Positions 2,685 to 57,461 of a stretch of DNA of 57,461 nt are shown piece by piece. Source of the stretch: a virus (lineage: Duplodnaviria; Caudoviricetes); IMG/VR virus record IMGVR_UViG_3300017788_000030, positions 1 through 57,461 of that record. The stretch is one strand, 5' to 3'. Numbering within the stretch: the first letter of the stretch is position 1; every line of letters begins with the position of its first letter. The notes below the pieces were generated by a model. It made no database searches. It worked only from the letters and a program-made list of their open reading frames with translations, and had not been told where the DNA came from. The position numbers and the translations under genes were made by a program.

Positions 2685-3706
2685 GTATCAAAGAAGATGT
2701 AAAAAAAGATTTTGGTTCAGATATACTATTGTCTGCTAATTCAATCATAGACAGAGATCTAGTTACAATTCCAGTTAGTCCCGCCCTGGATATTATTCTT
2801 AATGGAGGTATACCAGAAGGTAGTTTCGTAATTCTAACAGGACATCCTAAATGTGGAAAAACCGTAACATCTTTAGATTTTGCCGCAACCGCACAAAGGG
2901 AAGAATACCAAGGAACACTAAAAAATCCTAGAGAAGTGTTCTATCTAAACATAGAAGGTAGAATTAAGAAAAGAGACTTAGAAGGAATAAAAAATTTAGA
3001 TTGTAATAGACTCAATATTATAGGCAGTCAACAAGGTAAAATACTACACGCCGAAGAATATTTGCAAATTGCAGAAAGAATCATAAACGAAGAACCAGGA
3101 TCAGTTATGATTATAGACTCATATTCTGCTCTATGTACAGAAGCTGAAATAACTAGCGAAATGGATAAAATGCAAAGAGCAGACGGAGCTAAATTATTAG
3201 CTAAGTTTTGTCGTAAAGTAGCAAATGTAATACCAGTTAATAAAAATATAGTAATAGGTATTACTCATTTAATGGGTAATCCTGGATATGGAAATGTAGA
3301 GTGGAAAGAAAAAAGTGGACAGGCTATAGCATATCAAACGGATATAAAAATTAAGGCTAAAATGTTTAAGCCATGGTTAAGTGGGGCCGACGGTCCTCAG
3401 ATAGGTCAAGAGGTGGATTGGCAAACCATATGCTCGGCTCTCGGTCCTCCTGGCGGCTCTATAAAAAGTTTCATAAGGTATGGAGAGGGTATAGATAAAC
3501 CAATGGAACTGGCTACTTTATGTATAGATTTTGGACTAATTAATAAAAGCGGAGCATGGTACACTATCAGCTGTCTAGGAGACAAGCAAAAATACCAAGG
3601 AACAGAAAAACTCAGACAATATATAGCAGAAAATGAAAGTGTATATAATGAATTATATGAAAAGTTAAACGAGACAATTGGCACACCATGCAAGTCAAAG
3701 ACCTAG
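2681..3706 (+). CDS. recA: RecA/UvsX-like recombinase
   Basis: SPALDIILNGGIPEG, Walker A GHPKCGKT, Walker B MIIDSYSAL, C-terminal GID...LINKSGAWY. Confidence 0.93.
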   Translation: MSIKEDVKKDFGSDILLSANSIIDRDLVTIPVSPALDIILNGGIPEGSFVILTGHPKCGKTVTSLDFAATAQREEYQGTLKNPREVFYLNIEGRIKKRDLEGIKNLDCNRLNIIGSQQGKILHAEEYLQIAERIINEEPGSVMIIDSYSALCTEAEITSEMDKMQRADGAKLLAKFCRKVANVIPVNKNIVIGITHLMGNPGYGNVEWKEKSGQAIAYQTDIKIKAKMFKPWLSGADGPQIGQEVDWQTICSALGPPGGSIKSFIRYGEGIDKPMELATLCIDFGLINKSGAWYTISCLGDKQKYQGTEKLRQYIAENESVYNELYEKLNETIGTPCKSKT

Positions 3707-4098
3707 ATGGAAATATACATTATTGGAAATTAATTGGAGGTATTTCTAATGGTTATGATGAACAGAAATCTTCTTATCATCTATTGGCCAGACAACTCAT
3801 TAAAGAGTGTTTTCCAACACTACAAATTTTAGAAGAAATTCCTATACATATTAGAAAAACAGAAATACTTTTTTTGGATTTTTACTTACCATTAAATAGA
3901 AAATGTATAGAAGTACATGGAGAACAACATTATGCGTTTTCTAGATTTTATCATAAGGATAAGATTGGGTTCCTAAAGCACAAAAAAAGAGATAAGGATA
4001 AACAAGAGTGGTGTGATGTTAATAATATAGAATATGTCGAATTGCCGTACAATGAATCATTATTAGAATGGAAAAAGAGAATACTAAATGAATACTAA
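3688..4098 (+). CDS. Vsr/DUF559-like PD-(D/E)xK endonuclease
   Basis: FLDFYLP...CIEVHGEQHY...RDKDKQEWC..NNIEYVELPY. Confidence 0.75.
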   Translation: MQVKDLDGNIHYWKLIGGISNGYDEQKSSYHLLARQLIKECFPTLQILEEIPIHIRKTEILFLDFYLPLNRKCIEVHGEQHYAFSRFYHKDKIGFLKHKKRDKDKQEWCDVNNIEYVELPYNESLLEWKKRILNEY

Positions 4099-4579
4099 AA
4101 CAGCAAAAGAAGAGATAGAGCACTGGGATTCTATATTAGATGAGTACGAAAAGAATATTGGTTTACCAACATATGTATCAGACAGTTTACCGGAACAGGA
4201 ACTACAATCCTATTTAACGATGAACAGAGATGTACTAGAAAAACTTACGCCAGAACAATGCGGAGAAATAAGTTATAGACTAGGACAATTTTCTTTTCAT
4301 ATACAAAGAACTTTGAACAGGGAAATAGCTAGATATAATTGGTCAGAAGAGACCATCAAAGATATTATAGCCGATGATATCAATTCGTATAAAGGATATG
4401 GATATATAGAAAAGTCATCACAAGCTATTAAACACAACGACAGAGCATCTGCGCTAAATAAAATTAAAAAATATGCCAAACAAAGATCGGACAGACTAAC
4501 ATATATAGCAACATCTATCAAAAATCTATCGGATATACTTATTTCTATTCTAAAATCTAAGGCATCAAAACATGGATAA
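4088..4579 (+). CDS. helical hypothetical protein (weakly UvsY-like recombination mediator)
   Basis: 163-aa all-helical/coiled-coil composition near recA; the function is inferred from context only. Confidence 0.45.
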   Translation: MNTKTAKEEIEHWDSILDEYEKNIGLPTYVSDSLPEQELQSYLTMNRDVLEKLTPEQCGEISYRLGQFSFHIQRTLNREIARYNWSEETIKDIIADDINSYKGYGYIEKSSQAIKHNDRASALNKIKKYAKQRSDRLTYIATSIKNLSDILISILKSKASKHG

Positions 4580-9228: not shown

Positions 9229-9273
9229 ATGGATATGAGAAGAACATATGTTCCTCTTCATGTCCATTCCTAG
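9229..9273 (+). CDS. 14-codon ORF encoding the true N-terminus of DnaE (MDMRRTYVPLHVHS*), out of frame with the rest of the gene
   Basis: AAAGGA at 9213-9218 and ATG at 9229. YVPLHVHS is the first PHP strand with the HxH ligands; it is followed by TAG TGA, and HYSLLDG continues in the -1 frame. Confidence 0.75.
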   Translation: MDMRRTYVPLHVHS

Positions 9274-21964: not shown

Positions 21965-22911
21965 TTGACGATTTTGTAGTTTATGGTTACGAAAACGGGT
22001 TTTGGCAAAGTTTAATAATACATTGTACTGTATTATTAATAATGTCATTTTTGTTTATTGTTATAGAAAAAAGAAAACCTCCTATAGTTATACAATTATC
22101 TTCATTATCTGATGTTGTAGAGTATAATAATGCTAATACGGAAGATCTGGAACTAGAAGTTGATGTGTCACATTTTAATGTTAGCAATACTAACAATGAA
22201 ATTGATAATCAGCTAGATATAATTAGCGATGTGATATTTCAAGAGGAAGAGCCTGTCGCGGATTCGTCTGATGCTTCTGATATTGTATCAATAGAGGAAT
22301 CTTTGTTATTGGACTCTATTGATAACAAAAAATCCGATATGAACCAAATGTTTTCAGAAGCGGAGACCCCTCAAAAGATACCAAGTACAGAACCAATGGA
22401 TGATAATCCTTTAAAAAAACTTGTGTCTCAGGGCGTCTCACTAGGCCAAGGACAAGGCAAAGCGGTGTCTGCTAGAACTACTTCTGCTAGCACTTCTCCA
22501 AAATCTATAGAGGAAAAAATACAAATGTACGGAGCCGGAACAGGAGATGTGCAAATATCGTTGTCATGGTCAACTGCCGACGACATAGATTTACATGTTC
22601 AGTATATAGGATATGGTATCAACGAAGTTATTTTCTGGAGAAGGAGACTTGGTTCGTCTGGAGCTATTCTAGACATAGATATGAATGCTAGAGGACCACA
22701 AAATCGCAATCCTATTGAAAATATTTTTTGGCCATACAATAGCGCTCCTCGCGGCCGATTTATGGTGGGCGTACACTTTTTCAGAAGCTGGACCAGAAAT
22801 ACTAAAGTTCCGGTAATCATTCGTATCAAAACTCTAAAAGGTACTTATACCAAAGAGTCTGTTGCTATTCTAGGGCAGGATATACAAGTTATAGAAACTT
22901 TTACTAACTAA
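21934..22911 (+). CDS. single-pass membrane protein with acidic linker and YfaP/DUF2135-like C-terminal domain
   Basis: TM segment WQSLIIHCTVLLIMSFLFIVI; GDVQISLSW...DDIDLHV...LDIDMN...ENIFWP...GRFMVGVHFF. Confidence 0.7.
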   Translation: MAQMEKRTRIIDDFVVYGYENGFWQSLIIHCTVLLIMSFLFIVIEKRKPPIVIQLSSLSDVVEYNNANTEDLELEVDVSHFNVSNTNNEIDNQLDIISDVIFQEEEPVADSSDASDIVSIEESLLLDSIDNKKSDMNQMFSEAETPQKIPSTEPMDDNPLKKLVSQGVSLGQGQGKAVSARTTSASTSPKSIEEKIQMYGAGTGDVQISLSWSTADDIDLHVQYIGYGINEVIFWRRRLGSSGAILDIDMNARGPQNRNPIENIFWPYNSAPRGRFMVGVHFFRSWTRNTKVPVIIRIKTLKGTYTKESVAILGQDIQVIETFTN

Positions 22912-23368
22912 CGGGACCCCATTTTTGGGCTGGACAACTTGCTTGTTTATTAGCGAGTTTATTATGGTAATTTTTATCTCTAGTAATAGTACATCCACAT
23001 AAATTACATGAATTATTCTGAAAATGTTCACACATTTTACAAATATTCATTCTGTCTTTAATCTGATCTTCCGAGCATAATAAGTCTTTCGGGTCGAATG
23101 TTGGAGTAGTATGATCTTTACCCATTTTTAACATTTGATTTTCTGCTTGCTGTCTTATAAATGCTGTAGGGTCACCTACTGCCCCATGATATACTGGTGG
23201 CGCAAAGTCACTTGCCGCTAAAGAAGTTTCCATATCTTGTCTAGCAAAATGAAAACAAATAATTTTAGTTAGTGGATTTTCCAAAGCCACTTCTAGTTTA
23301 CAGTTTTTACACTTATAAATTCTTTTATTATTGTATATTTTTTTAGTATCTTCAAATTCACAAAACAT
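22904..23368 (-). CDS. Cys-rich protein (C-terminal DUF6171-like module)
   Basis: RMNICKMCEHF...CNLCGC...KLA...CPAQKW, plus N-terminal YKCKNC. Confidence 0.65.
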   Translation of the reverse strand: MFCEFEDTKKIYNNKRIYKCKNCKLEVALENPLTKIICFHFARQDMETSLAASDFAPPVYHGAVGDPTAFIRQQAENQMLKMGKDHTTPTFDPKDLLCSEDQIKDRMNICKMCEHFQNNSCNLCGCTITRDKNYHNKLANKQASCPAQKWGPVS

Positions 23369-44996: not shown

Positions 44997-47900
44997 TTAT
45001 GCTTGTTGAATATTTATTCCATCAAAATTATTACTAAACGAACTAAGTGCTTCATTTATACGACCACTAATAATTCTTTGTAGTCCCGGCTCTATCGAAG
45101 CCAGCGCTTCTGCTCCGGTGAGAACTATTTGGATTGGTGGTAGTGGGGCTAGTTGCATGGTTATGGTGTCTGGAATCCTAATAGACGATAATTGGTTAAT
45201 AAAAGTATTAAATGTTTGTGTAAAAGCAGATAGTCCGTCAATATTATTTACACCGTTACGATTATTAGTAATATTTGTTTGTGTTGGAGAAATCAAACCT
45301 TTAGTAACTTGACCAAGTAAGCTAGTAAATGTAGTCAATTGTTGATTTACGCTATTAAATATTTGTGTTAGAGTATTTTCTTGTGGAGCAACCACATTTC
45401 GTATCTCCTGTTGTCGTTGTGGAAATCTGGCTTCTTTATTAATTCTTTGTGCCTCAAAATGCTCTTGTATTTTGCGTATAAGAGGGGAATCGAAATCGCT
45501 TCTTAAATATGCTGGGGTTCCTGTCTGTCTATTATAACTTTGAGCTAAATTACCATTACTTTGAATTAAAAATCCTATACTTTTTATTAGTGCGTCATAT
45601 GGCATTTGTTTTAAACTTGTGTGTGTGGACGATCCTGATCCTCGTTGCAAATAAACCACACCTCCATCAGCATAATTGCCGCTATTAATAGCTTGCAATA
45701 GTGGTAAATTAGCTTGAGTAGCAGCACGATTAACCACAAACTCGCCGGGCGTTAGCATAGCAGGGACAGTGTCGGTGCCGCGAGGTTGATAGTTTACATA
45801 TTGACCTTGGCTAGCATATACTATGCCGCCCCTACTTTGATAAATGTTAGGAGTCAAAGACTTTTCTGGATCAAGAGGTGCTAGTCTACTATGTCGTAAT
45901 CTGTCTGCTCCTTGTCCAAAGAATGGTAGACTAATACCTCCCTCGTCCCTAACCAAGGCGCCTTGTGCTTGTGGAAATAATTTTCTAAGAATATTATAAA
46001 CAGAATATTCGTCTGGTCTTCTAAAAGTAAATTCCATGGAATTTTCAAAATCCGCAAAATTTGGTAGATTCATTTCTTCTGGTAGAATTGTTCTACCCTG
46101 AATATTCAATTCTTTTCTAGTAATGCCACTACCTCTAAGCATTCTCTCTAATTGTCCAGATGGGTCTTTTCTTGTTCTAGCGTATTCTTGTAGCGCTGGC
46201 AACAATGTTTTCAAATCGCCGGATGTACTAAAGTTAAATAAGGTCGTGCGGCTCCCCGGAGGGTATTGATTTGGATTCGGTAGATCTACTGAGCCAACAC
46301 CACTAACAGAAGGATCTAGTCCAGCAACTTTTTCACTAGAGCCCAATAAATCATAAGTAGAAAAAGCTTTTCTGGCTATCGTCTTTTCTCTCAATTCGGC
46401 ACTTTCAGGCGAAAATAGCTCTAGAGCAGACTGTATTGTTCTAGACATGATATTTTGTTGTTGAACATAAGCATCTTGAGGAAGATTTGGTTGGGATGCT
46501 AATTCTAAAGGTGCTTTATCAAAAGCGGTATACGCCATTCCTTTGCTTGCTGGTCCAGCATTAACAGCTCTTGGTCCCACCTCTGGTGGCTGTCCAAAGT
46601 TTTTAGCTCCTGGTTGTGCCATTCTAAAGACTGGTAAATCAAGACCCATTTGTGTTGCACGAGATGCTCTGCTATTTGGGTCCATCGGTAGTTGCCCGGA
46701 CTTTACTTTATCTATAGTTGTTTGATCAACACCATAAGACTCTAAAAATCTTAAGTATTCTTCGCTAATAGTACCAGAATCTAATTGTCTAGACAATCTA
46801 TATTCTAATTGTTTTTGTAATGATGCTAATTCTGTTTGTTGTTTAGCTATCTCTACCATTAGTTTAGATTGTTTATTACGAATTGTTGTTGATAGTTTTT
46901 TCCGAGCTGATTCCGATAAGGAACTATCATTCATTTTTGTGTCTCTAGTTTGTGCTAAATCATCTAATACTTTAAAATTATCACTGATTTGTGTCCTAAG
47001 TTCACTAATTCTTTTTATACTGGTTTGTGGTTTAGCTCCTGGTTGTGCAAAACCAACAGCTGCATTAACAACAGCATTTCGTGTCAAACTATTAAGGTCT
47101 GTTGGGATATCAAAAACTTGATTAGAGGCAAGTTCTACTCCTGTGCCTATGGTTGCACTAACTCCAGCAGCAGTTGCTCTTGTTCCCAGGGTTCCGACCA
47201 TAGAACGAACACCTTGTGTTGCTAGTCCATATCCCATTCCTGGAATAGCTCCGGCCACAGCACTAGTTACGGGATATTCTCCCATTAGTTGGTTAGCTTT
47301 TTGATTAGCTTCTGGAGCAACAGCATCTAGTCCTGCTTCTTGAATATAGCCCGCACCCATAGCCCCGACTACTCCACCAGTAAGAACAACTAATGGATAA
47401 GCAGGAGCGAATGGAGTAAGCAGCATCGGAGAAGCTAATTGAGCGGTTGCCGACCCTGCTGCTATACCAGCAGCTGTTGGACCGATAGATTTAGCAGCAG
47501 AAACGCCAGCAGCCTGAACTTGTCTTTCTTCTAAAGCAAATTTTTCCCAGTTGAACGTACTAATAGGACTCTGAGCATTGGTTGAATATGGACCCATACC
47601 AGCCCTATATGCTGCCATACCATTTGGTATTCTCATACCATCCTGAGCATAAACCAATCCACCCTTACTATATCCCATAGTTTGCATACTTTTTCTTAAA
47701 AAAGCCTGACTAGCTGGCATATTATTAAACTCAGGAGTATCTGCTATACTGGCTATTACAGCAAATAATTCATTTGGATTAGCATCTAATTGAGCTATAG
47801 TATAACCAGTATCTGCTAGTTTTTGATAATTATTATCTACTAGTTCTTGTCCTATTTGAAAAACAATACTACTTCTGGCATTTTTTCTATTTCTAAGTTT

Positions 47901-50900
47901 TTGTTGTAGTTGTGTTTTTTCTATATTATATTGTTCTTCAACTTTCTTTGGATCAATTCCTGCATCTAAATATTGTTGTTTTTTTAGTTGTGCTCTTTGT
48001 TCCCAAATTTGCATAGCATCATCCGAAGAAAAGTCTCCCATTTGAGCTGCAAACTGTTGATTTCTGACATTAGGACCCACATGAGTAGTATTGGCTAAGG
48101 CATGAGCCATCTCGTGCTTGGCCATTGCTGATGTTACGACCCTATCACGAAAAATTATATTTCTTGATTGTAAATCAAACGTTGCGGAAGCTCCAGACGG
48201 TAGACCTGATTGTCTAATTCCGGAGATGCCATAATTTTGATTTGTTGCCATTAGTAATTTTTGTTGTCCTTGTGGACTACTAGTATAACCTTGTAGTGAG
48301 TCTGTTAGACTATTCAGAGTATTTTTCATAGCATTCGGATCAAAAATATCTATAGCATTCAACTGCTCATTCTCTGGTAATCCACCATATTGAGCATAAA
48401 CAACTCCTCCTTTGGCATAAGGAAGTGATACGCCAACCTTTGCTCTATCCTGGGGTGTAGCAAATTTTTTCCATGTATTACGATCAATTCTTATATTACT
48501 ATTATTGGGTCTCTTAATTAGTACTCCCTCATTATTCCAACTAACATAGTCACCTACTAGTGGTTTATCACCAATTAAACGGCCATTTAACCAAGTATAT
48601 CCAGCAGATTTTGGCGTGGGTAGTGGAGAAGTTGATGGTTGTTTGCGATTAGTACCAACCGGAGGTCTGGGGGTTGATGGCATGGGCCCAGCCGAAGGTC
48701 TGGGACTTGGTGGAAACGGATCTAATCCGGCCCCTGTTCTTATTTGTCTCTCTCGTTCTGCATTATCTGCTTCTTGTTGTGTTTTAGCTCTTCTTTGTGC
48801 GCCTGGAGTTAATGGGGTTGGTGGACCACTTCCAGGAAAATTATTACCAGGAGGATCTAAAAATATTCCTTTCCCGGTTTCGGATTGATCTTCAGGTGTT
48901 GTTGGACGAGGTTTTATTGGGGGTTTGTAGGGCGGAGGCTCTAAAAATGGACCCGATGGAGTTCTCCGTGTTTTTTCTGCTTCTTCTTGTGCTGTTGTTC
49001 TAGGCTGAGGAAGTTGTTCTGGTTTTTGTCTATGGCAAGCTTCGACATAGTTGCGGTCGATCTCGCTGAGTCGATTGAGCGGCACACGGATGACGCTGCC
49101 GTTGGACTTGCGGATTTCGACCACGTCGTCTTTTAATCCTTGGAACCGACCCACCGTCGCATACTTTCCGCTCGCGTCCACCCAGCGCCGCTCTCGAATC
49201 TCTTTTTCATCACATTTTATTTTTACAGCAGCTTTATCTTTTTCTGTGGCAGCGGAAGGTTGCGATGGTTTGGGAGATTGTGATTGTTTGGCGGGGCGCG
49301 TCTTTAGAATACGTTCCTGATCTGATTTAATCAAGTGGTCAAATAAAAGATCGGTCTCCTGATAACGGGGTTCTCCATTTTCTTCGCCAGTCTGATACTT
49401 TATCAGAAAACGATCATGATCCTTCCAACCTCGAAACTCTCCTTTAAATATGCTTCTGCCTATAGCGTCTGTCTTTGGAGAGCCAAAATTCTGTCGATCA
49501 AATTTGTTTTGAGCGGTCCAGGTTCTAATACCTAACCCCTGTTCCTTTAGTGCTTGTTTTTTCTGATCATCACTACATTCGTATTTTTTTGCCGCATCTA
49601 ACATGTGTCTTAAAAAGTTGTTGAGACCGCTATTATTCAATCCTTCAATTATGCGATCTTGCGCGGCTACATTTTCCTCGTATCTCTTCTTTGCGCCCGC
49701 CGTACGCCCACCCGCGAGCCAATCCTCCATTCTGCGCTCTCGGTTGTTGATTGGAGCGGGATCATTTCGACTAACTGGTGGCACATACCATACACTATCA
49801 TCGTTGTCGGTTATTGGAACAGTCGTAACCTCAATGAAACAATCATTGTTATTCTTATTAAATTTGCCAATCTTATGTCTATATAATGGAGCACTCGTTC
49901 CACTACCTCCTTCTTTTCTATCCCACAGTTCTACTTGAGTTCCATTATAGTAGATTGGGAGCCCTTCGGCATCCCGGCTTTTTGTTGTAAAATAACCTTC
50001 CCTTAGTCCGTTTTGTACAGCATAATAAGTGGCTTCTCCTCCGTGTATACCAATTGTTTCCTTTGCTACACCTCCCTTTTGTAAATAAACAACTCCTCCT
50101 TTCGCATATTTATTTATGGATCCACCCTTACTATTATTAATACTTTGTAATAATGGTAAATTAGCCCTTGTCGCAGATCGGTTAACAACAAATTCTCCGG
50201 GAGTTAACATGGCCGGAACAGTATCAGTACCACGCGGTTCATAAGGAACTAACATACCATTATTAGCATAAACTATTCCTCCTCCAGCGGCAGGGCCGGC
50301 GGCTCGCCGAGGGACGTGCCCCGCGGGTGGAGCGGACCACGGGGGTGGGCTGAAATCTCCGCGCCGCCGACGCTCATGCCGCCGAGGAGGAGGTGGCCGC
50401 CGAGGAGGAGGTGGCCGCCGAGCCGGAGGTGCGGGTGGCTGTTGCCCGGCTCCAGCAGGAGCGGGAGGGGCTGGCATTCCCGGCATCCCTGGTACCAAAG
50501 CAGCTATTAAATTAATTATAGGTTGAAGTTGGTTAATAATTGGATTCCAGACATTCATCATATTTATGATGGCGCCTATACCTCTTTGGGTAGATCTACA
50601 ACATTTATCAATAGCTTCTAAAATAGCATCTAATTTAGCATGAGCACTCTTATCACTTAATGGCACATCATCAGTATTACTTTTTACAATATCTTTAGTA
50701 CTATATCCTAGTTTATTCGTATCTTTGCTAATACTTAAATTTTGTTTAGTCATTGTGTATATTTCACTAGGTTTTGTAATTTTTACGCCATCCTTAGTGG
50801 CAACCTGGGTCATATCTTCGGCTGTTCCTCCTTCTTGTAAGTATTTAACGCTGCCGCCTTTGCTCCTGTTGATAGATTCTAACAAACCTCTATGCCTAGA

Positions 50901-53900
50901 TGTTGCTTGTTTATTAACAACAAATTCTCCCGGTGTAAGCATCGCCGGCACAGTATCAGTTCCTCTTGGTTCGTATGGCACCAACATACCATTATTTGCA
51001 TAAACTATTCCTCCCAAATTTTTAGGATTAGCTATTCTTATAACTTTATTTTGAGCCTGTTTATTAGGAAATAAAAACTGTGCAACATTACTTCCGCCTA
51101 AAGCATTAAGTTTTTCTATGCTAGCATCAGGATTTCTAGGATCAATATATCCTTGTCTTGTTAGCCTTTTTAAGAGATTACCCCTAGCATTATCTTGATT
51201 TCTTTTATCTAATTGATTAAAGCCACCAACCATTTTATTAAAGTTGTTTATGTCGTTAACACTCTTAATAAAAGCTGTTTTAAACTTCTGATTAACTTTA
51301 GGATTTTTGTCTATTATGTTTAATAAATATGGATTATTTTTAGCAGTATTAAGTGCTGTGCTAGATGCTTGAGATAATAGTGATATTTGATTACGTAGGG
51401 CCGGATCGGTTTTTGAACTAACAGGAATCATTGATGCTACAGCAGCTATTTGATTATTATCAAAAGGCCTAAATATTGCTTCGGCTATTTTAGCATCCAA
51501 ACCATATTGTTGCATAGTTTGAATATCTGTTGTAACATCTCCGGATAGTGGAAATTTGCCCTTTAATTTTTCTAGAATATTTGATCTTAGTGTTAAGAAC
51601 CTACCAGGATTCTCAAATTTAGAAGGTAATTGAATATTACTTATTCTGGATAAAGTTTTCCACATTTGAGCTTGTTTTTCAGCTTCTTTATTTGCTAATA
51701 CTTTCTCTCTTCTTTGAGATTCTTGTGCTTTTTTAAGCATACTAGTATCATAGTCATTCCAGAGTTGGTCTGCTAATTCATCAGGAGTAATATTTAAATT
51801 ATTCTTACTTATATAATCTTTTTTAGCTTCTTCATATGATGCCCTAATACTATCATCTAATTCTACCAAAGCTTGATAACCTTTTAATTTAACGCCTGGA
51901 TCTATAGATTTTTGAATTTCATTTTCTTTATTTTTTCTCTCTATTAACAATTTTTGCCAGTCTTTAAATGCTGGGTCAGAATTAATAATATCAGAAGGTA
52001 GGCCTCCATTATCTCTATCAAAAGAAATCTGTCTTAAAGTATCTGTTGAAACAAATCCGAACCCACCACGATTATCAAAAAAAGTTTGTAATTCACCGTT
52101 TTTAGCAGCTAAATCGTCTTGGTCTTGTTTTCTTGTCTGAGCCTGTTTTATATCGAAATCATTCGCCCATGTAGGTAAATTTAGTGTTTTTAATAGATTC
52201 CGTCTATCATTTTCTTTATCTGCCATGTTTTTGCTTCTTTGTATGGCAGCATTTGTTTCTGCATTCAAGATGTCTTCGTCGGTAGCATTATGATTCAAAC
52301 CTAACGCTCTTGTTTTTTCTGTTCTATATCTATAGTCTTGTTGTTGTTGTGCCAACAATTGTTCTTGTGTTCTTTGTTGTCTTTGTGTTATTTCTGTTTT
52401 TCCGGTCTCTATGATTTTTTGAATTATTAGATCAATATCTTGTTGTTTAGCTGTTTTATATACTAAATATACTAAATCATCACCAGTAATTTGAGGTAAA
52501 GACAGTTGTTGTTGGTCTAATATCCGTAAAAGCTTATCTTTTATATCTTGAGACATGCCACTACTATTTATTCTATCTTTTTCTAAAGTAATTCTGATCA
52601 TCTCATCTACATATGTTGCTGCTCTTGGACCCAATCCTGATTTCCACCAATCTCCTTGTTGAGCGGACTCTACTTCTGATGACTGCATTCTTGAAGCCAT
52701 TTGTTCTGATGCTAGTCTTTGTTGTCTAGCTTCGTAAGCTGAAACACTGACATAGCCCATTTGAGCAATTTTATCAACTGGTCTTGTTAGTCCACCAAGA
52801 GCACTACCCAAGTATGTTTGTTGTTGTTCGCTTTCTTCTCTTTTTTTCTTATCGAATGCTTTAGGATCGTAAGCTAATTCGCCAAATGTTTGCACAGTAT
52901 CCAAAACCACATTTGTGCCTAAAGGAGCAGCCTTTGTTAATAATCCGGCTGCTGATCTTGTAGCAGCAGAATAGCCGAACCTTGCTCCTATATCTGCTGT
53001 TAATCCAACTGCTTGCGCAGTTGTTTCATCCGCTCCTAATGCTGTGGCTCCTGTTCGTAAAGCTTGTTGCATTAACACATTGCCAGCTACTGATCTTAAG
53101 TTTGCAAATTGTGTAACTTGCTGCCTAGTTGGAGTAACAGATCCAACCGCAGATTTAACCCCTTGTCCCAATCTTTGTAATGATCCCTCTGGAACTAATG
53201 TCGGATTCGGAACACCAACATCTGCTGCCCAATTATTAATACCTCTTCTTAAAGAAGATAGTCTTGATACTTGAGGAGCGGCCGTTGCTGATTGAGCAGC
53301 GGCCGTTACTGATGGTGCGCCTAAAGTAGCATTGGTTGCTGCGCTTTTAGCTCTAACATCTTTTATGTTTTTCCGAAAAGCATCATCTGTATCCGTGCCA
53401 TCAGCAGCATAAACTACTCCTCCTCTACTATATGTTTTTCCACTTCCATTACTACTATTAATACTTCTTAATAGTCCTAAATTATTTTTGGTAGCTTTAG
53501 CATTAACAACAAATTCCCCTGGTGTTAACATAGCAGGAATAGTATCTGTACCTTTAGGAGCAAAATTAACATAAGTTCCATCACTAGCATATACTACTCC
53601 TCCTTTAGACTGAGTTTGTGGAACTCTGCCTGGAGGAGTTAATCCTAATCCCATACTTCTTAATTGTTCAGTATTAAATCTAACCTCAATACTACTTAGT
53701 GCGTCAATAAATTTTTGATTCGCAGCATCTAACACCGCAGTTTGTTTATCTAAAGTGTTTTGGTTAATTCTTTGTGTAGTATCTATTAATGACCGTTGTT
53801 CTGAAGCTAGTAATGCTTGTAATTCTTTTATTTCTCTACTTTGTTCTGGAGGTTGTTCTAGTCTACTAATAATAGTTTGAAATATAGGATTATTTTGTAA

Positions 53901-56900
53901 TCCGGATCCTTGAGAAGACGCTAAGTTTTTGAATAATTCTGCTCTTACTGGTCTTAATTCGTCTTCTTCTAAACCGCTCATAGAACTAAGTTCATTAAAT
54001 AAAGTTAACACATTTCGCGTTTGTCCAGCAAAAGCTTGTTGAGCAGCAAGCATAGCTTCTTGTTGGGTCTTACCATCTGTTAAAGCTTGTCTATAAGCTA
54101 ATTGAGCAGCTTGGGATTGTTGAATAGTATTTACATTTCCCGACAGGGCGCTGTTTAATACATTAAATGTAGTACCTAATTCTTGTAATTCTTGCGGCGT
54201 ACTACCAAGCAATCGTTCGCCAAAGCCTGTTGATGCCTGAGTAATATTTGCAGATTTTTGTTGTATTCTAGATATTTCTGAAATAATATCATTAATATTT
54301 TGTTCTATATTTTGAGGTAAACTATCTAACGCTTGATTAACCTGTCTAATAGATGACTCTGTTAAACCCAATTCTTTATTTAGTGCAATAAATTGTCTAG
54401 ATGCTGCTAAGTCTCTTTTATCAAAAGATTGCGCCATATTTGCTAAAGATTTTTCAATATTTTGTTTTTGTTGTATTAATGAGTCTCTTCTATCAGATAA
54501 TGTGCCAGCATTTAAATCTTGTGGTCTTACTCCGGCTTTAGTAGCCGCAACCGACGTTCTAGCTTGTCTTCTTTGGTCCAGGGTAATTCTTTTACCCAAA
54601 GCTTCTTGAAAACTTATATTACTTTGAGCAATAATATTTTGAGATGATGCTATATTTTCAGCTAGTTTATCTTGCAAAGATCCATATTCTTTTGCTGCGG
54701 CTCCAACAAAATTTAAAGCATTTTCTAAAAATTTTGCACTAGCATTTAATGCTTCAAATACTTGTTTACTAGCTTGTATTTGTTGGTTTAATCCAGGAAT
54801 ATTTTCTAGTATATCTTGTATGCTAATATCTTCTAACTTATTTCTACCCTTTACAAACTCAGCAATAGCCGGTTTAAATTGGGCTCTAATACTTTCTCCT
54901 AGTTGTGGTCCAAAAATATTATCTAGTTGATTAGTTAATAAACCACTTAATCTATCGCCAATAACATTAGGTTCAGTAACGCCTCCGGCTTTGGCCTGAT
55001 TTAAAGCTGTTGTCATAGAGTCTTCTATATCCAAACTGAATCTAGCAAATTTTTCTACAAATTGTCTATCTTGTCCAGCGAACTGAGCTGACTGAGATAT
55101 TGCAGCATTTTGTTCAGTTCTAGAATATGCTCTAGGATTTTCTAGAATATTAGATGATCTTAATTTAATACTAAAATCAGCAGAATCACTAACTATATTT
55201 TGGATACTTTCAGAAGCCTGATCTAAACTAAAAGATGCCGCATTAATTGATTGATTAAGAGTTTCAAAAGTTCTGGTTAAACTAACGGAAACTAAATTTA
55301 GCTGTTTTGTGAGCATATTATTAGCTTTGGCTCTGGCGATCTCAGAAAATCTGGTCTCAATGCTTGTTCTAATTTCTTGTGTTTTTTGTGCTGTTAATTC
55401 ATTGATTTTTTGATTTTTTGTGTCTTCGGCATCTGTTGATTGTTTAATTTTTTCAACTTCTACAGCATAAGCTGTATCGGCTTCCAAAATAGCAGCATAT
55501 AATTGATCAAAAGATGATCCTCCTTGTTGTAGTTTTTGGGACACTGTTGCATAATCCTGCGTAGCTTGTATCTGAGAGTCTAAAAATTGTTGAGCTACAG
55601 CAGCTGCTTTTTGTTGATTCACAGCTTTTTCACCCCCAACAGTTTCTGCTGTTGGAGACGATAAAATACCTAATCTTCTGCCGATTCCGGTTAGCGTAGA
55701 CGGAGCATTTGCTCTTTCTCTAGAAGCTGCTAGTTTAGTTTCTTCCGTTTGTATTCTTTGGAAATTACCAATAACATCATTAAATGCACCTTTATCATTT
55801 ATATTAACCGACATTCTTTCAAAAGCTTTGCCTGTAGTATCAAAAATTTGATCAATTCTAGCGCTAGTAGTTGTTGCTTCAAAATTTGCAACACTAGCAC
55901 CCCAACTATCTATTGATGTGGCTAATCCAACAAGCAAACCTCCAATAGCACCTATGCCGCCAAACTGAGATCCAATGCTAGTAAATGTAGAAATATTTGA
56001 TGCTACTCCGGCAACCCCTGCTCCTGTTGCTCCTCCTATAGTTTCTCCTAATTGACCAGCTAACATTGGTCCGGTAAAAGCTAATGCTGTACCCAATCCA
56101 GAAAAGTTAAACTTGTTACGTTCTTTACTAGCGGCACCTTGTGTTTGTGACAATTGATCTGATGATTGTTGTAAAACATTTTGACTTTGTGTCGTTTCTT
56201 TAATTTCTTTGTATAGTCCACCCCAAGCATCGGCTACTCTTCTTTCCGCTGCTGCTACAGCATCGGTAAGAGGAATACTATTATTAATTTTTCTAATTTG
56301 TGCAGCAATAGCATTGACTTGTTTTCTTTGTACTTCTGCTACGAGTTTTGCGGCATCTTGGTCACCTGTTTCTGCTGCTCTAAAGGCACCAAAAGAAGCC
56401 GAAGGATTTGCCACCGGATTACTTTTTCCAAATAGAGCAGTAACTGATGTCTGTGTAATAAATTTTTGTAAAGCTTCGGTAGCAGCCTTTGTAACAGTAG
56501 TAAATTTATCTACTGGCCCATAATTAGTTCCACCATCCTTAAAACTTCTTATTCCAACACTACCGCCCTTATTCAATCCTAATGCTTTTGTTGCTTTTTC
56601 TCTTATTATAAAACTACCAACTGGTAAACTTGTAGGAATACTATCACTAGTTCCACTGCCCGGCCCCTTAAATATGCTAATACCACCTTCACTGAATCGC
56701 CCCATACCATTCTTATCAGCTTGATTCATTTTATTTAAAGTACCATATCCAATTCTTTTGGCAACTTTTGGTGGTACATAAGCTTCGCCGTTGCTAACTA
56801 GCGCAGGAACAGTTCCTCCATCAGCAAATGCTAGCCTGCCACCATTTGCTCTTCCAAAATACTCTAAGGCCATTTGTCCAGAAGATTTTGCGGGTTTTTT

Positions 56901-57461: not shown

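Follow-up and report, generated by a model that had tools for sequence, protein, structure and literature searches.

Tape-measure proteins (TMPs) set the length of a phage tail by their own length; they lie in its lumen and, as is known for lambda, T5 and HK97, are expelled at infection and pass into the envelope of the host. This expulsion into the envelope is cited as background in a report on glycine zippers common to Burkholderia TMPs and the translocated type VI secretion effector Tde1 (PMC10240207), and the longest TMP genes that we found in print, of about 9 kb, are those of Gordonia phages (PMC4919401, PMC4982279). Polyvalent proteins, as the main text of Iyer et al. 2017 presents them, contain metallopeptidase (MPTase), GNAT, ADP-ribosyltransferase (ART) and kinase domains that are injected with the DNA, the carriers being MuF or portal proteins in the head, N4-type virion RNA polymerases and conjugation systems (PMC5512222). 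Modular effectors related to TMPs, of the Sle1 type, are described for the contractile injection systems of actinobacteria (PMC13277306; PMC11126660). Here we analyze a giant open reading frame (ORF) in a 57,461-nt viral sequence, positions 1 to 57,461 of IMG/VR record IMGVR_UViG_3300017788_000030, the whole of which is called the window. The explanation that we favor, and to which we assign a probability of roughly 60%, is that this gene encodes a polyvalent protein built into a tape measure, in which a constant scaffold holds swappable modules joined at a TMP motif and delivers them with the DNA. The architecture and the turnover of its modules are well supported.

The ORF is a single minus-strand frame of 4154 residues that begins with AQGG, runs without a stop to the window edge, and is cut at its 5′ side by the end of the contig, as a preliminary description made from the letters alone had noted. 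When the whole protein is compared with Pfam, a single SHD1 domain is found and nothing else, and PF10145 is not found in it, its 5′ end lying off the contig. PHROG 25241, "tail length tape measure protein", matches four times, with every match on a copy of the linker described below. The missing end is seen in a 177,880-bp IMG/VR contig (G001), which is collinear with positions 1–45282 of the window at 75–84% nucleotide identity and encodes a complete orthologue of 6196 residues (P0122). Its N terminus matches PF10145 (PhageMin_Tail) with an E value of 1.9e-24 and 83.2 bits, against a cut-off of 33.2. Residues 1–1355 of the window protein (P0001) align with residues 2122–3503 of the orthologue at 75% identity, and therefore about 2,100 residues are missing from the window protein; judged in this way, the window holds the last two-thirds of the gene. 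A word-based search returned 305 related proteins of 2,284–7,270 residues, and all counts out of 120 given below refer to the best 120 of these 305. PF10145 is carried by 103 of the 120 by our own count from the table of hits, and it is also found in the relatives P0005 and P0004. These data support the assignment of the giant protein as a TMP, in line with the tape-measure-like identity first proposed for it.

The linker is a motif of about 85 residues that runs from GGxVYA through GTDTVPAMLTPGEFVVN to GGVVY. As Table 1 shows, four full copies are present, and alignment of these gives 34 invariant columns with the pattern GG-x-V-Y-A ... G-T-D-T-x-P-A-M-L-T-P-G-E-F-V-V-N ... L-L-x-x-I-N ... 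G-x-V-x-Y. Bare GG(V/L)VYA end pieces flank the putative zincin module on both sides (aa 3018 and 3267). The preliminary description had also placed two linkers near the N terminus, and of this degenerate pair, at about aa 205–325, one copy is detected by an iterated hidden Markov model (HMM; aa 182–271, E 1e-7), but the second is visible by eye only. The linker copies are 63–83% identical as protein and only 57–72% identical as DNA, which points to copies of long standing that selection has preserved and that are too divergent to mislead an assembler. A recent tandem duplication of the linkers was also considered, and it is ruled out by the same DNA divergence.

A profile built from the four full copies matches 10,068 of 1.84 billion cluster representatives at E ≤ 1e-3, with 531 at ≤ 1e-30, and the best 150 of the 10,068 all contain 2–12 copies within lengths of 604–7872 residues. 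Relatives of the giant protein hold 1–8 copies, with up to 12 in the wider library, and the iterated HMM locates 685 copies in 121 of 121 proteins, most commonly 5–7 in each. In cultured phages the linker, searched alone at E ≤ 1, is found at 714 places in 624 records under genes annotated as tape measures, 421 of the records being Mycobacterium phages and 104 Gordonia phages. The motif thus occurs mostly once per genome, which agrees with the earlier remark that a single copy is common in TMPs. A tblastn search with aa 1–3000 against 50,697 cultured-phage records at E ≤ 1e-5 returned nothing. The motif is also seen in gene 12 of the T4-like cyanomyovirus Synechococcus phage Bellamy (L012 6841–9240), an 800-residue "hypothetical protein" encoded directly after the baseplate-hub genes, which we take to be the position expected for a gp29-type tape measure. 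Among PDB sequences the linker profile finds no match, and no solved TMP chain carries the motif at this sensitivity. Modeled alone with AlphaFold2 (AF2) from a 33-row alignment, the linker gives a pLDDT of 56, a pTM of 0.29 and one helix only, from which we conclude that it is not an autonomous domain. The linker is an element of ordinary TMPs, probably ancestral to them, that has been multiplied here, and because it is conserved it would provide a natural boundary for recombination and for domains.

The preliminary description had proposed that an HMM of the linker be used to look for variable cargo in a constant scaffold among relatives, and this is what we observe. With blastp of the window protein against the 120 relatives, the core at aa 700–1350 is covered in 102–116, the two middle linkers in 117 and the last linker in 110, the GNAT-like module in about 50, and the C-terminal cap in 33–45. 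Coverage is 9–36 of 120 over aa 1400–2100 and 0–13 of 120 over aa 2500–3850. When all proteins were cut at full and short linkers and pieces of at least 60 residues were kept, 121 proteins yielded 965 inter-linker segments that fall into 158 clusters, 89 of them singletons. The region earlier described as an Ala/Gln-rich cargo of about 800 residues (aa 1383–2132) does exist, but it is better seen as a second helical region that is semi-conserved and that 35 of the 120 share. The family includes marine records, and the name of one source begins with TARA.

Pairwise comparisons show where the content changes. Inside the gene, the DNA of the window and of the 177.9-kb contig aligns in four islands only, which cover the zincin module, L2 together with the terminal part of the second helical region, the core and, lastly, the GNAT-like module. 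The orthologue is without G1, G2 and the Pro/Arg tract, and it has extra linkers and a second zincin. The claim that cargo boundaries coincide with the linker holds for four of the six homology breakpoints between these two proteins, but the other two lie within inter-linker stretches. A closer pair of relatives, P0002 and P0003, is 98.3% identical over aa 1–841, 94.3% identical over 3,243 residues and 90.6% identical in the cap, with a 373-residue block in one standing in place of a 197-residue block in the other. Their identity ends at residue 836, where GGQVQRF finishes in both proteins, and it restarts at GGEVQRF in one and at GGIIQKF in the other. Across 234 proteins, 38% of the ends of homology blocks of at least 200 residues fall inside a linker, compared with 9.4% of random positions, and 53% compared with 17% fall within 25 residues of one; since protein pairs are not independent, these percentages are a description and not a test. 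The scaffold is conserved, and module content turns over at the conserved joints between related phages.

Of the individual modules, that preceding the core had been called GNAT-like, and structural modeling points the same way. The AF2 model (18-row alignment) has a pLDDT of 87 and a pTM of 0.78. The top Foldseek hits are GNAT enzymes but are weak (best E 6.9e-3, TM 0.38/0.44), and in an exhaustive VIA-align comparison all 50 listed entries have the GNAT/acyl-CoA N-acyltransferase fold, with Z scores of 5.7–7.6; the best has a Z of 7.6 and a root-mean-square deviation of 3.3 Å over 106 residues. The anti-CRISPR acetyltransferase AcrVA5 is among the listed matches. GNATs bind pyrophosphate with a β4–α3 loop of the form Q/R-x-x-G-x-G/A. 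In the module an invariant (K/S)GYGP(R/K)LYD lies between the strand at 48–56 and the helix at 61–74 of the model, with G59, G61 and P62 invariant, and the model thus places the GYGP where GNATs bind the pyrophosphate of acetyl-CoA. The module is found in 57 of 233 relatives, always directly before the core. Positions 56572–57461, which encode this module and the degenerate linkers, have a summed contig depth of 28–67 in three lake metagenomes versus about 1–14 over most of the gene, with several variant contigs; the module seems to be common to many co-occurring phages.

The module with the HExxH sequence is predicted to be a zincin, as first suggested. Zincins combine an HExxH helix with a third zinc ligand. 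In an alignment of 20 such modules that are 18–69% identical, the only invariant columns are the H, E and H and a distal E, the last within the motif P-x-E-(I/L/M/V)-(F/L/M). The nearest PDB profiles are serralysins and myroilysin, which match at the HExxH helix with E values of 0.06–0.7, below threshold, and no specific peptidase family reaches threshold. The signature occurs in 34 of 234 relatives, which argues that it does not mark a general processing enzyme. An enzyme that cuts every linker was considered as a role for the zincin and is ruled out as a general rule by this count.

The remaining modules are less easily assigned. Two SHD1-like domains had been proposed, of which the first is a clear Pfam match, but the second (aa 2940–3017) is matched by no Pfam family and shows no similarity to the first in BLAST. 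The Pro/Arg-rich cargo was located in aa 2226–2386 and the hydrophobic Gly/Ala module by its Kyte–Doolittle (KD) hydropathy peaks at aa 3342–3374, both as anticipated. At 50200–50499 on the minus strand, a 66% G+C island stands in a genome of about 33% G+C, with an 18-nt unit present three times at 50378–50431; it encodes the Pro/Arg-rich tract just before L3, where relatives have a shorter Pro-rich stretch. The segments E1 (aa 2487–2756) and G2 (aa 3520–3863) have no relative among 233 proteins. ARTs are recognized by a fold with an R-S-E or H-Y-E catalytic triad. The ART-like call for G2 is not upheld, as this segment has no Pfam hit up to E 5 except one unrelated, no PDB sequence match, no Atlas match of at least 0.9 and no free-standing relative among proteins of 189–602 residues. 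A phmmer search with segments A, F and G against PDB sequences gave nothing meaningful. In the N-terminal cargo of the orthologue, a Walker-A loop, an HxGH-type nucleotidyltransferase motif and a DxDxT motif can be recognized by eye only.

On the explanation favored here, the scaffold would consist of the N-terminal PF10145 domain, a helical core of about 1,000 residues with a glycine-rich stretch, the second helical region and the C-terminal cap. Variable modules would be inserted into it, each bounded by the 85-residue motif or by an end piece made of GG, two hydrophobic residues, Y or Q, and A or K. The linker most likely docks onto a tail component (tube wall, tip or chaperone) and would in this way keep the chain in register. 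Since TMPs exit the tail at infection, the modules would go along with the DNA, and because a GNAT fold needs acetyl-CoA, the module modeled as such would act in the host cytoplasm. Glycine-rich hydrophobic modules may help membrane crossing, by analogy with Tde1. Delivery of the modules into the host and action there are plausible. A bolder form of the idea, which we put forward tentatively and would not bet on at even odds, is that the motif serves as a general-purpose joint, by which as many as a dozen unrelated proteins can be threaded along the tail ruler and fired into the host before the DNA. The lumen of the tail would act as a hold for cargo that recombination at the joints reshuffles between phages, and a second, tail-based route for polyvalent effectors would be widespread in aquatic phages and have gone unnoticed.

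Several observations weigh against the favored explanation. The lumen of a tail tube is about 4 nm wide, which should be too narrow for three copies of folded domains of 20–30 kDa lying next to one another; the modules would have to be unfolded or staggered there, or the tail very long. By the rule of 0.15 nm of tail per TMP residue, the tail would here be about 0.9 μm. E1 and G2 together amount to about 620 residues of cargo with neither relative nor assignment, Pfam finds PF10145 and nothing else in two whole relatives, and in the N-terminal cargo of the orthologue it gives sub-threshold hits related to cytidylyltransferases only (E 0.002 and 0.13). The GNAT likeness is at the level of fold only, Z scores below 8 being middling and the best Foldseek E being 7e-3, and 0 of 18 members of the module match a Pfam GNAT model. 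Free-standing relatives of the module are limited to two matches on contigs of about 1 kb, which are probably fragments, and given its fixed place before the core the module may be part of the scaffold rather than cargo. The preliminary description had also proposed recovering the 5′ end and looking for tube and chaperone genes, and although the N terminus is now known through the orthologue, no sheath, tube or chaperone gene can be named beside it. A TMP gene is expected to follow the tube and chaperone genes of the tail module and to precede the distal tail genes. Upstream in that contig are tail-fibre-like and virion genes followed by seven ORFs without a family, and downstream are six large ORFs without a family. 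Pfam sheath and HK97-capsid families were not found in the contig, which are weak negatives for a phage so divergent.

A different account, which we regard as doubtful, is that the modules are parts of the infection apparatus, such as length spacers or envelope-penetrating, periplasm-acting and receptor or adhesion elements, whose variability reflects adaptation to different envelopes. The SHD1, Pro-rich and hydrophobic Gly/Ala modules are indeed non-catalytic, a secreted-type zincin could act on envelope proteins, and both the second helical region and the GNAT-like module keep a fixed place and are semi-conserved. The activities known to be embedded in TMPs are moreover cell-wall hydrolases, as in mycobacteriophage TM4 and T5 pb2, but no peptidoglycan-hydrolase family was detected in Pfam scans of the giant protein, two relatives and the N-terminal cargo of the orthologue. 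A GNAT fold with a conserved GxG loop would, if the model is correct, imply acetyl-CoA, which is absent outside the cytoplasm, and near-identical scaffolds that differ by about 1,460 residues are hard to square with a pure ruler. It is more unlikely still, in our estimation, that the ORF encodes a polyprotein precursor with the linkers as processing sites, the products being separate virion or early proteins of which some only reside in the tail lumen. Some TMPs are cleaved in assembly (lambda H, T5 pb2), and the linker does not fold autonomously and keeps Gly-Gly, Asp and Glu residues invariant. The protein also carries a predicted zincin, and Iyer et al. propose that MPTase domains allow polyvalent proteins to process themselves (PMC5512222). 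Against this, the zincin signature in 34 of 234 relatives contrasts with linkers in 121 of 121, and the same motif occurs mostly once in the ordinary TMPs of cultured phages, where there is nothing to separate. Processing of this sort can coexist with a polyvalent protein built into a tape measure.

That the giant frame is false, with unrelated pieces joined through the repeats during assembly, has a negligible probability. The gene does contain repeats, and the linkers are where contigs from co-occurring relatives diverge. Contig joints and loose contig ends concentrate there, as at 45798 with 53502 (L4–L1), 53555 with 56578 (L1 with a degenerate copy), and several at 50133–50265 (L3) and 50899–50983 (L2); these are as expected from co-occurring relatives with other neighbors at the same joints, although cross-matching of the repeats themselves may contribute. 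However, the divergence of the linker copies as DNA stands against a misjoining, the frame is open for 12.4 kb, and 305 relatives of 2,284–7,270 residues exist. In run X1, the possible source, an independent assembly by a second assembler gave a 10,940-nt contig over positions 45791–56730 with 1 mismatch. In lake-water run X2, from a second study, pieces cover 45116–46511, 46776–47230, 47420–49011, 49069–50434 and 51361–56622 with 0–2 mismatches per piece; since these cover every cargo module, the same module order is seen in a second study. Much of the gene is present in three runs, which are freshwater or lake metagenomes from three studies. In run X4, a relative that is 90–95% identical has 777 other letters in place of 56265–56563 (297 bases), just after the degenerate linker pair.

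Table 1. Features of the giant tape-measure gene, with residues numbered from the first residue in the window
Feature	Residues (aa)	Position in window	Strand	Remarks
Giant tape-measure ORF		44997..57461	minus	4154 codons + stop; 5′ end missing
GNAT-fold module	25–205	56847..57389	minus	AF2 model and structural comparison
Two degenerate linker copies	205–325	56487..56849	minus	iterated HMM and by eye
Conserved Ala/Gln/Leu-rich helical core	326–1279	53625..56486	minus	most widely shared part of the family
Glycine-zipper-like Gly-rich hydrophobic stretch in core	~470–520	55902..56054	minus	KD peak aa 495–518
Linker L1	1280–1365	53367..53624	minus	full copy
Second long helical region	1366–2142	51036..53366	minus	N half variable; C half common with orthologue (56% identity)
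Linker L2	2143–2225	50787..51035	minus	full copy
Short module, hydrophobic helix + Pro/Arg-rich tract	2226–2386	50304..50786	minus	66% G+C island, 18-nt ×3 repeat
Linker L3	2387–2475	50037..50303	minus	full copy
Orphan module E1	2476–2756	49194..50036	minus	no relative found
SHD1 domain (PF03983)	2757–2812	49026..49193	minus	Pfam E 2e-12, 47.1 bits vs cut-off 23.7
Pro-rich tract + small unassigned domain	2813–3017	48411..49025	minus	common with orthologue
Short joint GGVVYAQ	3018–3024	48390..48410	minus	bare GGxVYA stub
Zincin module (putative)	3025–3266	47664..48389	minus	HEMAH aa 3116; distal Glu in PNELFA aa 3229
Short joint GGLVYAQ	3267–3273	47643..47663	minus	bare GGxVYA stub
Hydrophobic Gly/Ala module G1	3274–3519	46905..47642	minus	in 32/233 relatives; KD peaks aa 3342–3374
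Orphan module G2 (earlier "ART-like")	3520–3869	45855..46904	minus	no assignment
Linker L4	3870–3950	45612..45854	minus	full copy
Conserved C-terminal cap	3951–4154	45000..45611	minus	in 96/120 relatives; 48% identity to orthologue

The source is best explained as an uncultured freshwater phage with a long tail, whose genome would measure roughly 150–180 kb. CheckV gives the 57,461-bp contig a completeness of 38%. The genes of the plus-strand half of the window form a phage replication module, with a UvsX-like recombinase, a DnaB-like helicase, a primase, an exonuclease, a DNA polymerase, a single-stranded DNA-binding protein (SSB), a deoxynucleoside monophosphate (dNMP) kinase and glycosyltransferases. 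The polymerase (phrog_405; 9273–13604, plus strand) is split into ORFs at 9273–11120 and 11988–13604 that correspond to the first and second halves of the profile, with a DEDD/RNase_T-type exonuclease ORF (11305–11991) between them and the SSB gene after them. Two neighboring glycosyltransferase-like genes (phrog_2170; 14125–16904, plus strand) lie inside the replication block and may act in the glycosylation of DNA or of the virion. Where one gene block gives way to the other, a 154-residue ORF (22904–23368, minus strand) has weak matches to the Cys-rich, zinc-ribbon-like families DUF6171 and CRIPT and to phrog_13558.

The minus-strand half is a series of very large ORFs without a PHROG or Pfam family. 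Downstream of the tape measure, six consecutive ORFs of 2708, 534, 1338, 540, 538 and 1516 residues occupy 23375–44982 on the minus strand, and for these no PHROG family and no Pfam family above threshold was found. They are syntenic in the 177.9-kb relative, with gene sizes that agree between the two contigs, and presumably encode tail tip, baseplate and fibres of unknown type. That relative is recorded in IMG/VR as a "provirus" of 100% completeness, yet when the core and the GNAT-like module were each scanned against 185,579 prokaryote species, one genome each, no relative was found, and so these scans give no clue to the host.

If the modules are delivered, early-acting phage proteins would have TMPs as carriers alongside head-packaged proteins and virion RNA polymerases, and hundreds of uncharacterized modules, represented by the 158 clusters in 121 proteins, would become candidates for host take-over or anti-defence functions. 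The linker profile of about 85 positions, with its more than 10,000 protein clusters, provides a handle for mining such modules and for gauging the protein capacity of tails. The known size range of TMP genes is stretched from about 9 kb to over 23 kb, which puts the rule relating TMP length to tail length to the test. In full-text literature searches that covered few subscription journals, no description of a linker-jointed, multi-module tape measure was found, in agreement with the preliminary description, which knew of none; TMP-related modular effectors are, however, in print for contractile injection systems (PMC13277306). The architecture is real, widespread and apparently undescribed.

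How the protein relates to known systems can be stated as follows. It resembles TP901-1-type TMPs (PF10145, PHROG 25241) in the N-terminal PF10145 domain of its orthologue, in its long helical core and glycine-rich hydrophobic stretch, and in the GTD(T/S)(V/I)PAxLxxGEFV motif that is also found in hundreds of cultured-phage TMPs. It differs from them in being two to eight times longer, in having the motif 4–12 times rather than mostly once, and in the many non-muralytic, mutually unrelated modules between motif copies. The Gly-rich hydrophobic stretches in the core and in G1 recall the glycine zippers of Tde1 and the Burkholderia TMPs, by analogy only (PMC10240207). With the Sle1-type effectors (PMC13277306; PMC11126660) it shares a platform derived from a TMP and packed into a tail-like tube, and a variable functional domain that can be swapped; those effectors, however, belong to a bacterial nanomachine and, as far as they are described in PMC13277306, have one C-terminal functional domain and no repeated joint motif. 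The terms "tape measure", "TMP", "minor tail", "PF10145" and "linker" each occur 0 times in the main text of PMC5512222; members of this family may be listed in its supplements, one candidate being the protein from an uncultured Mediterranean phage in its GNAT section. Polyvalent proteins are recognized by several unrelated effector-type domains, commonly with a zincin MPTase among them that has HExxH and a Glu on the following helix, and the giant protein has a predicted zincin, a GNAT fold in its model, SHD1 and two orphan modules. As described in that text, polyvalent proteins are also huge multidomain proteins encoded among virion genes; they have the HExxH and distal Glu of zincins and the GNAT fold, contain many domains that cannot be assigned, and are extensively mosaic from one relative to the next, all of which has its likeness here. 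Unlike the carriers that the same text names, the carrier in this case is a TMP, and a repeated conserved joint separates its modules.

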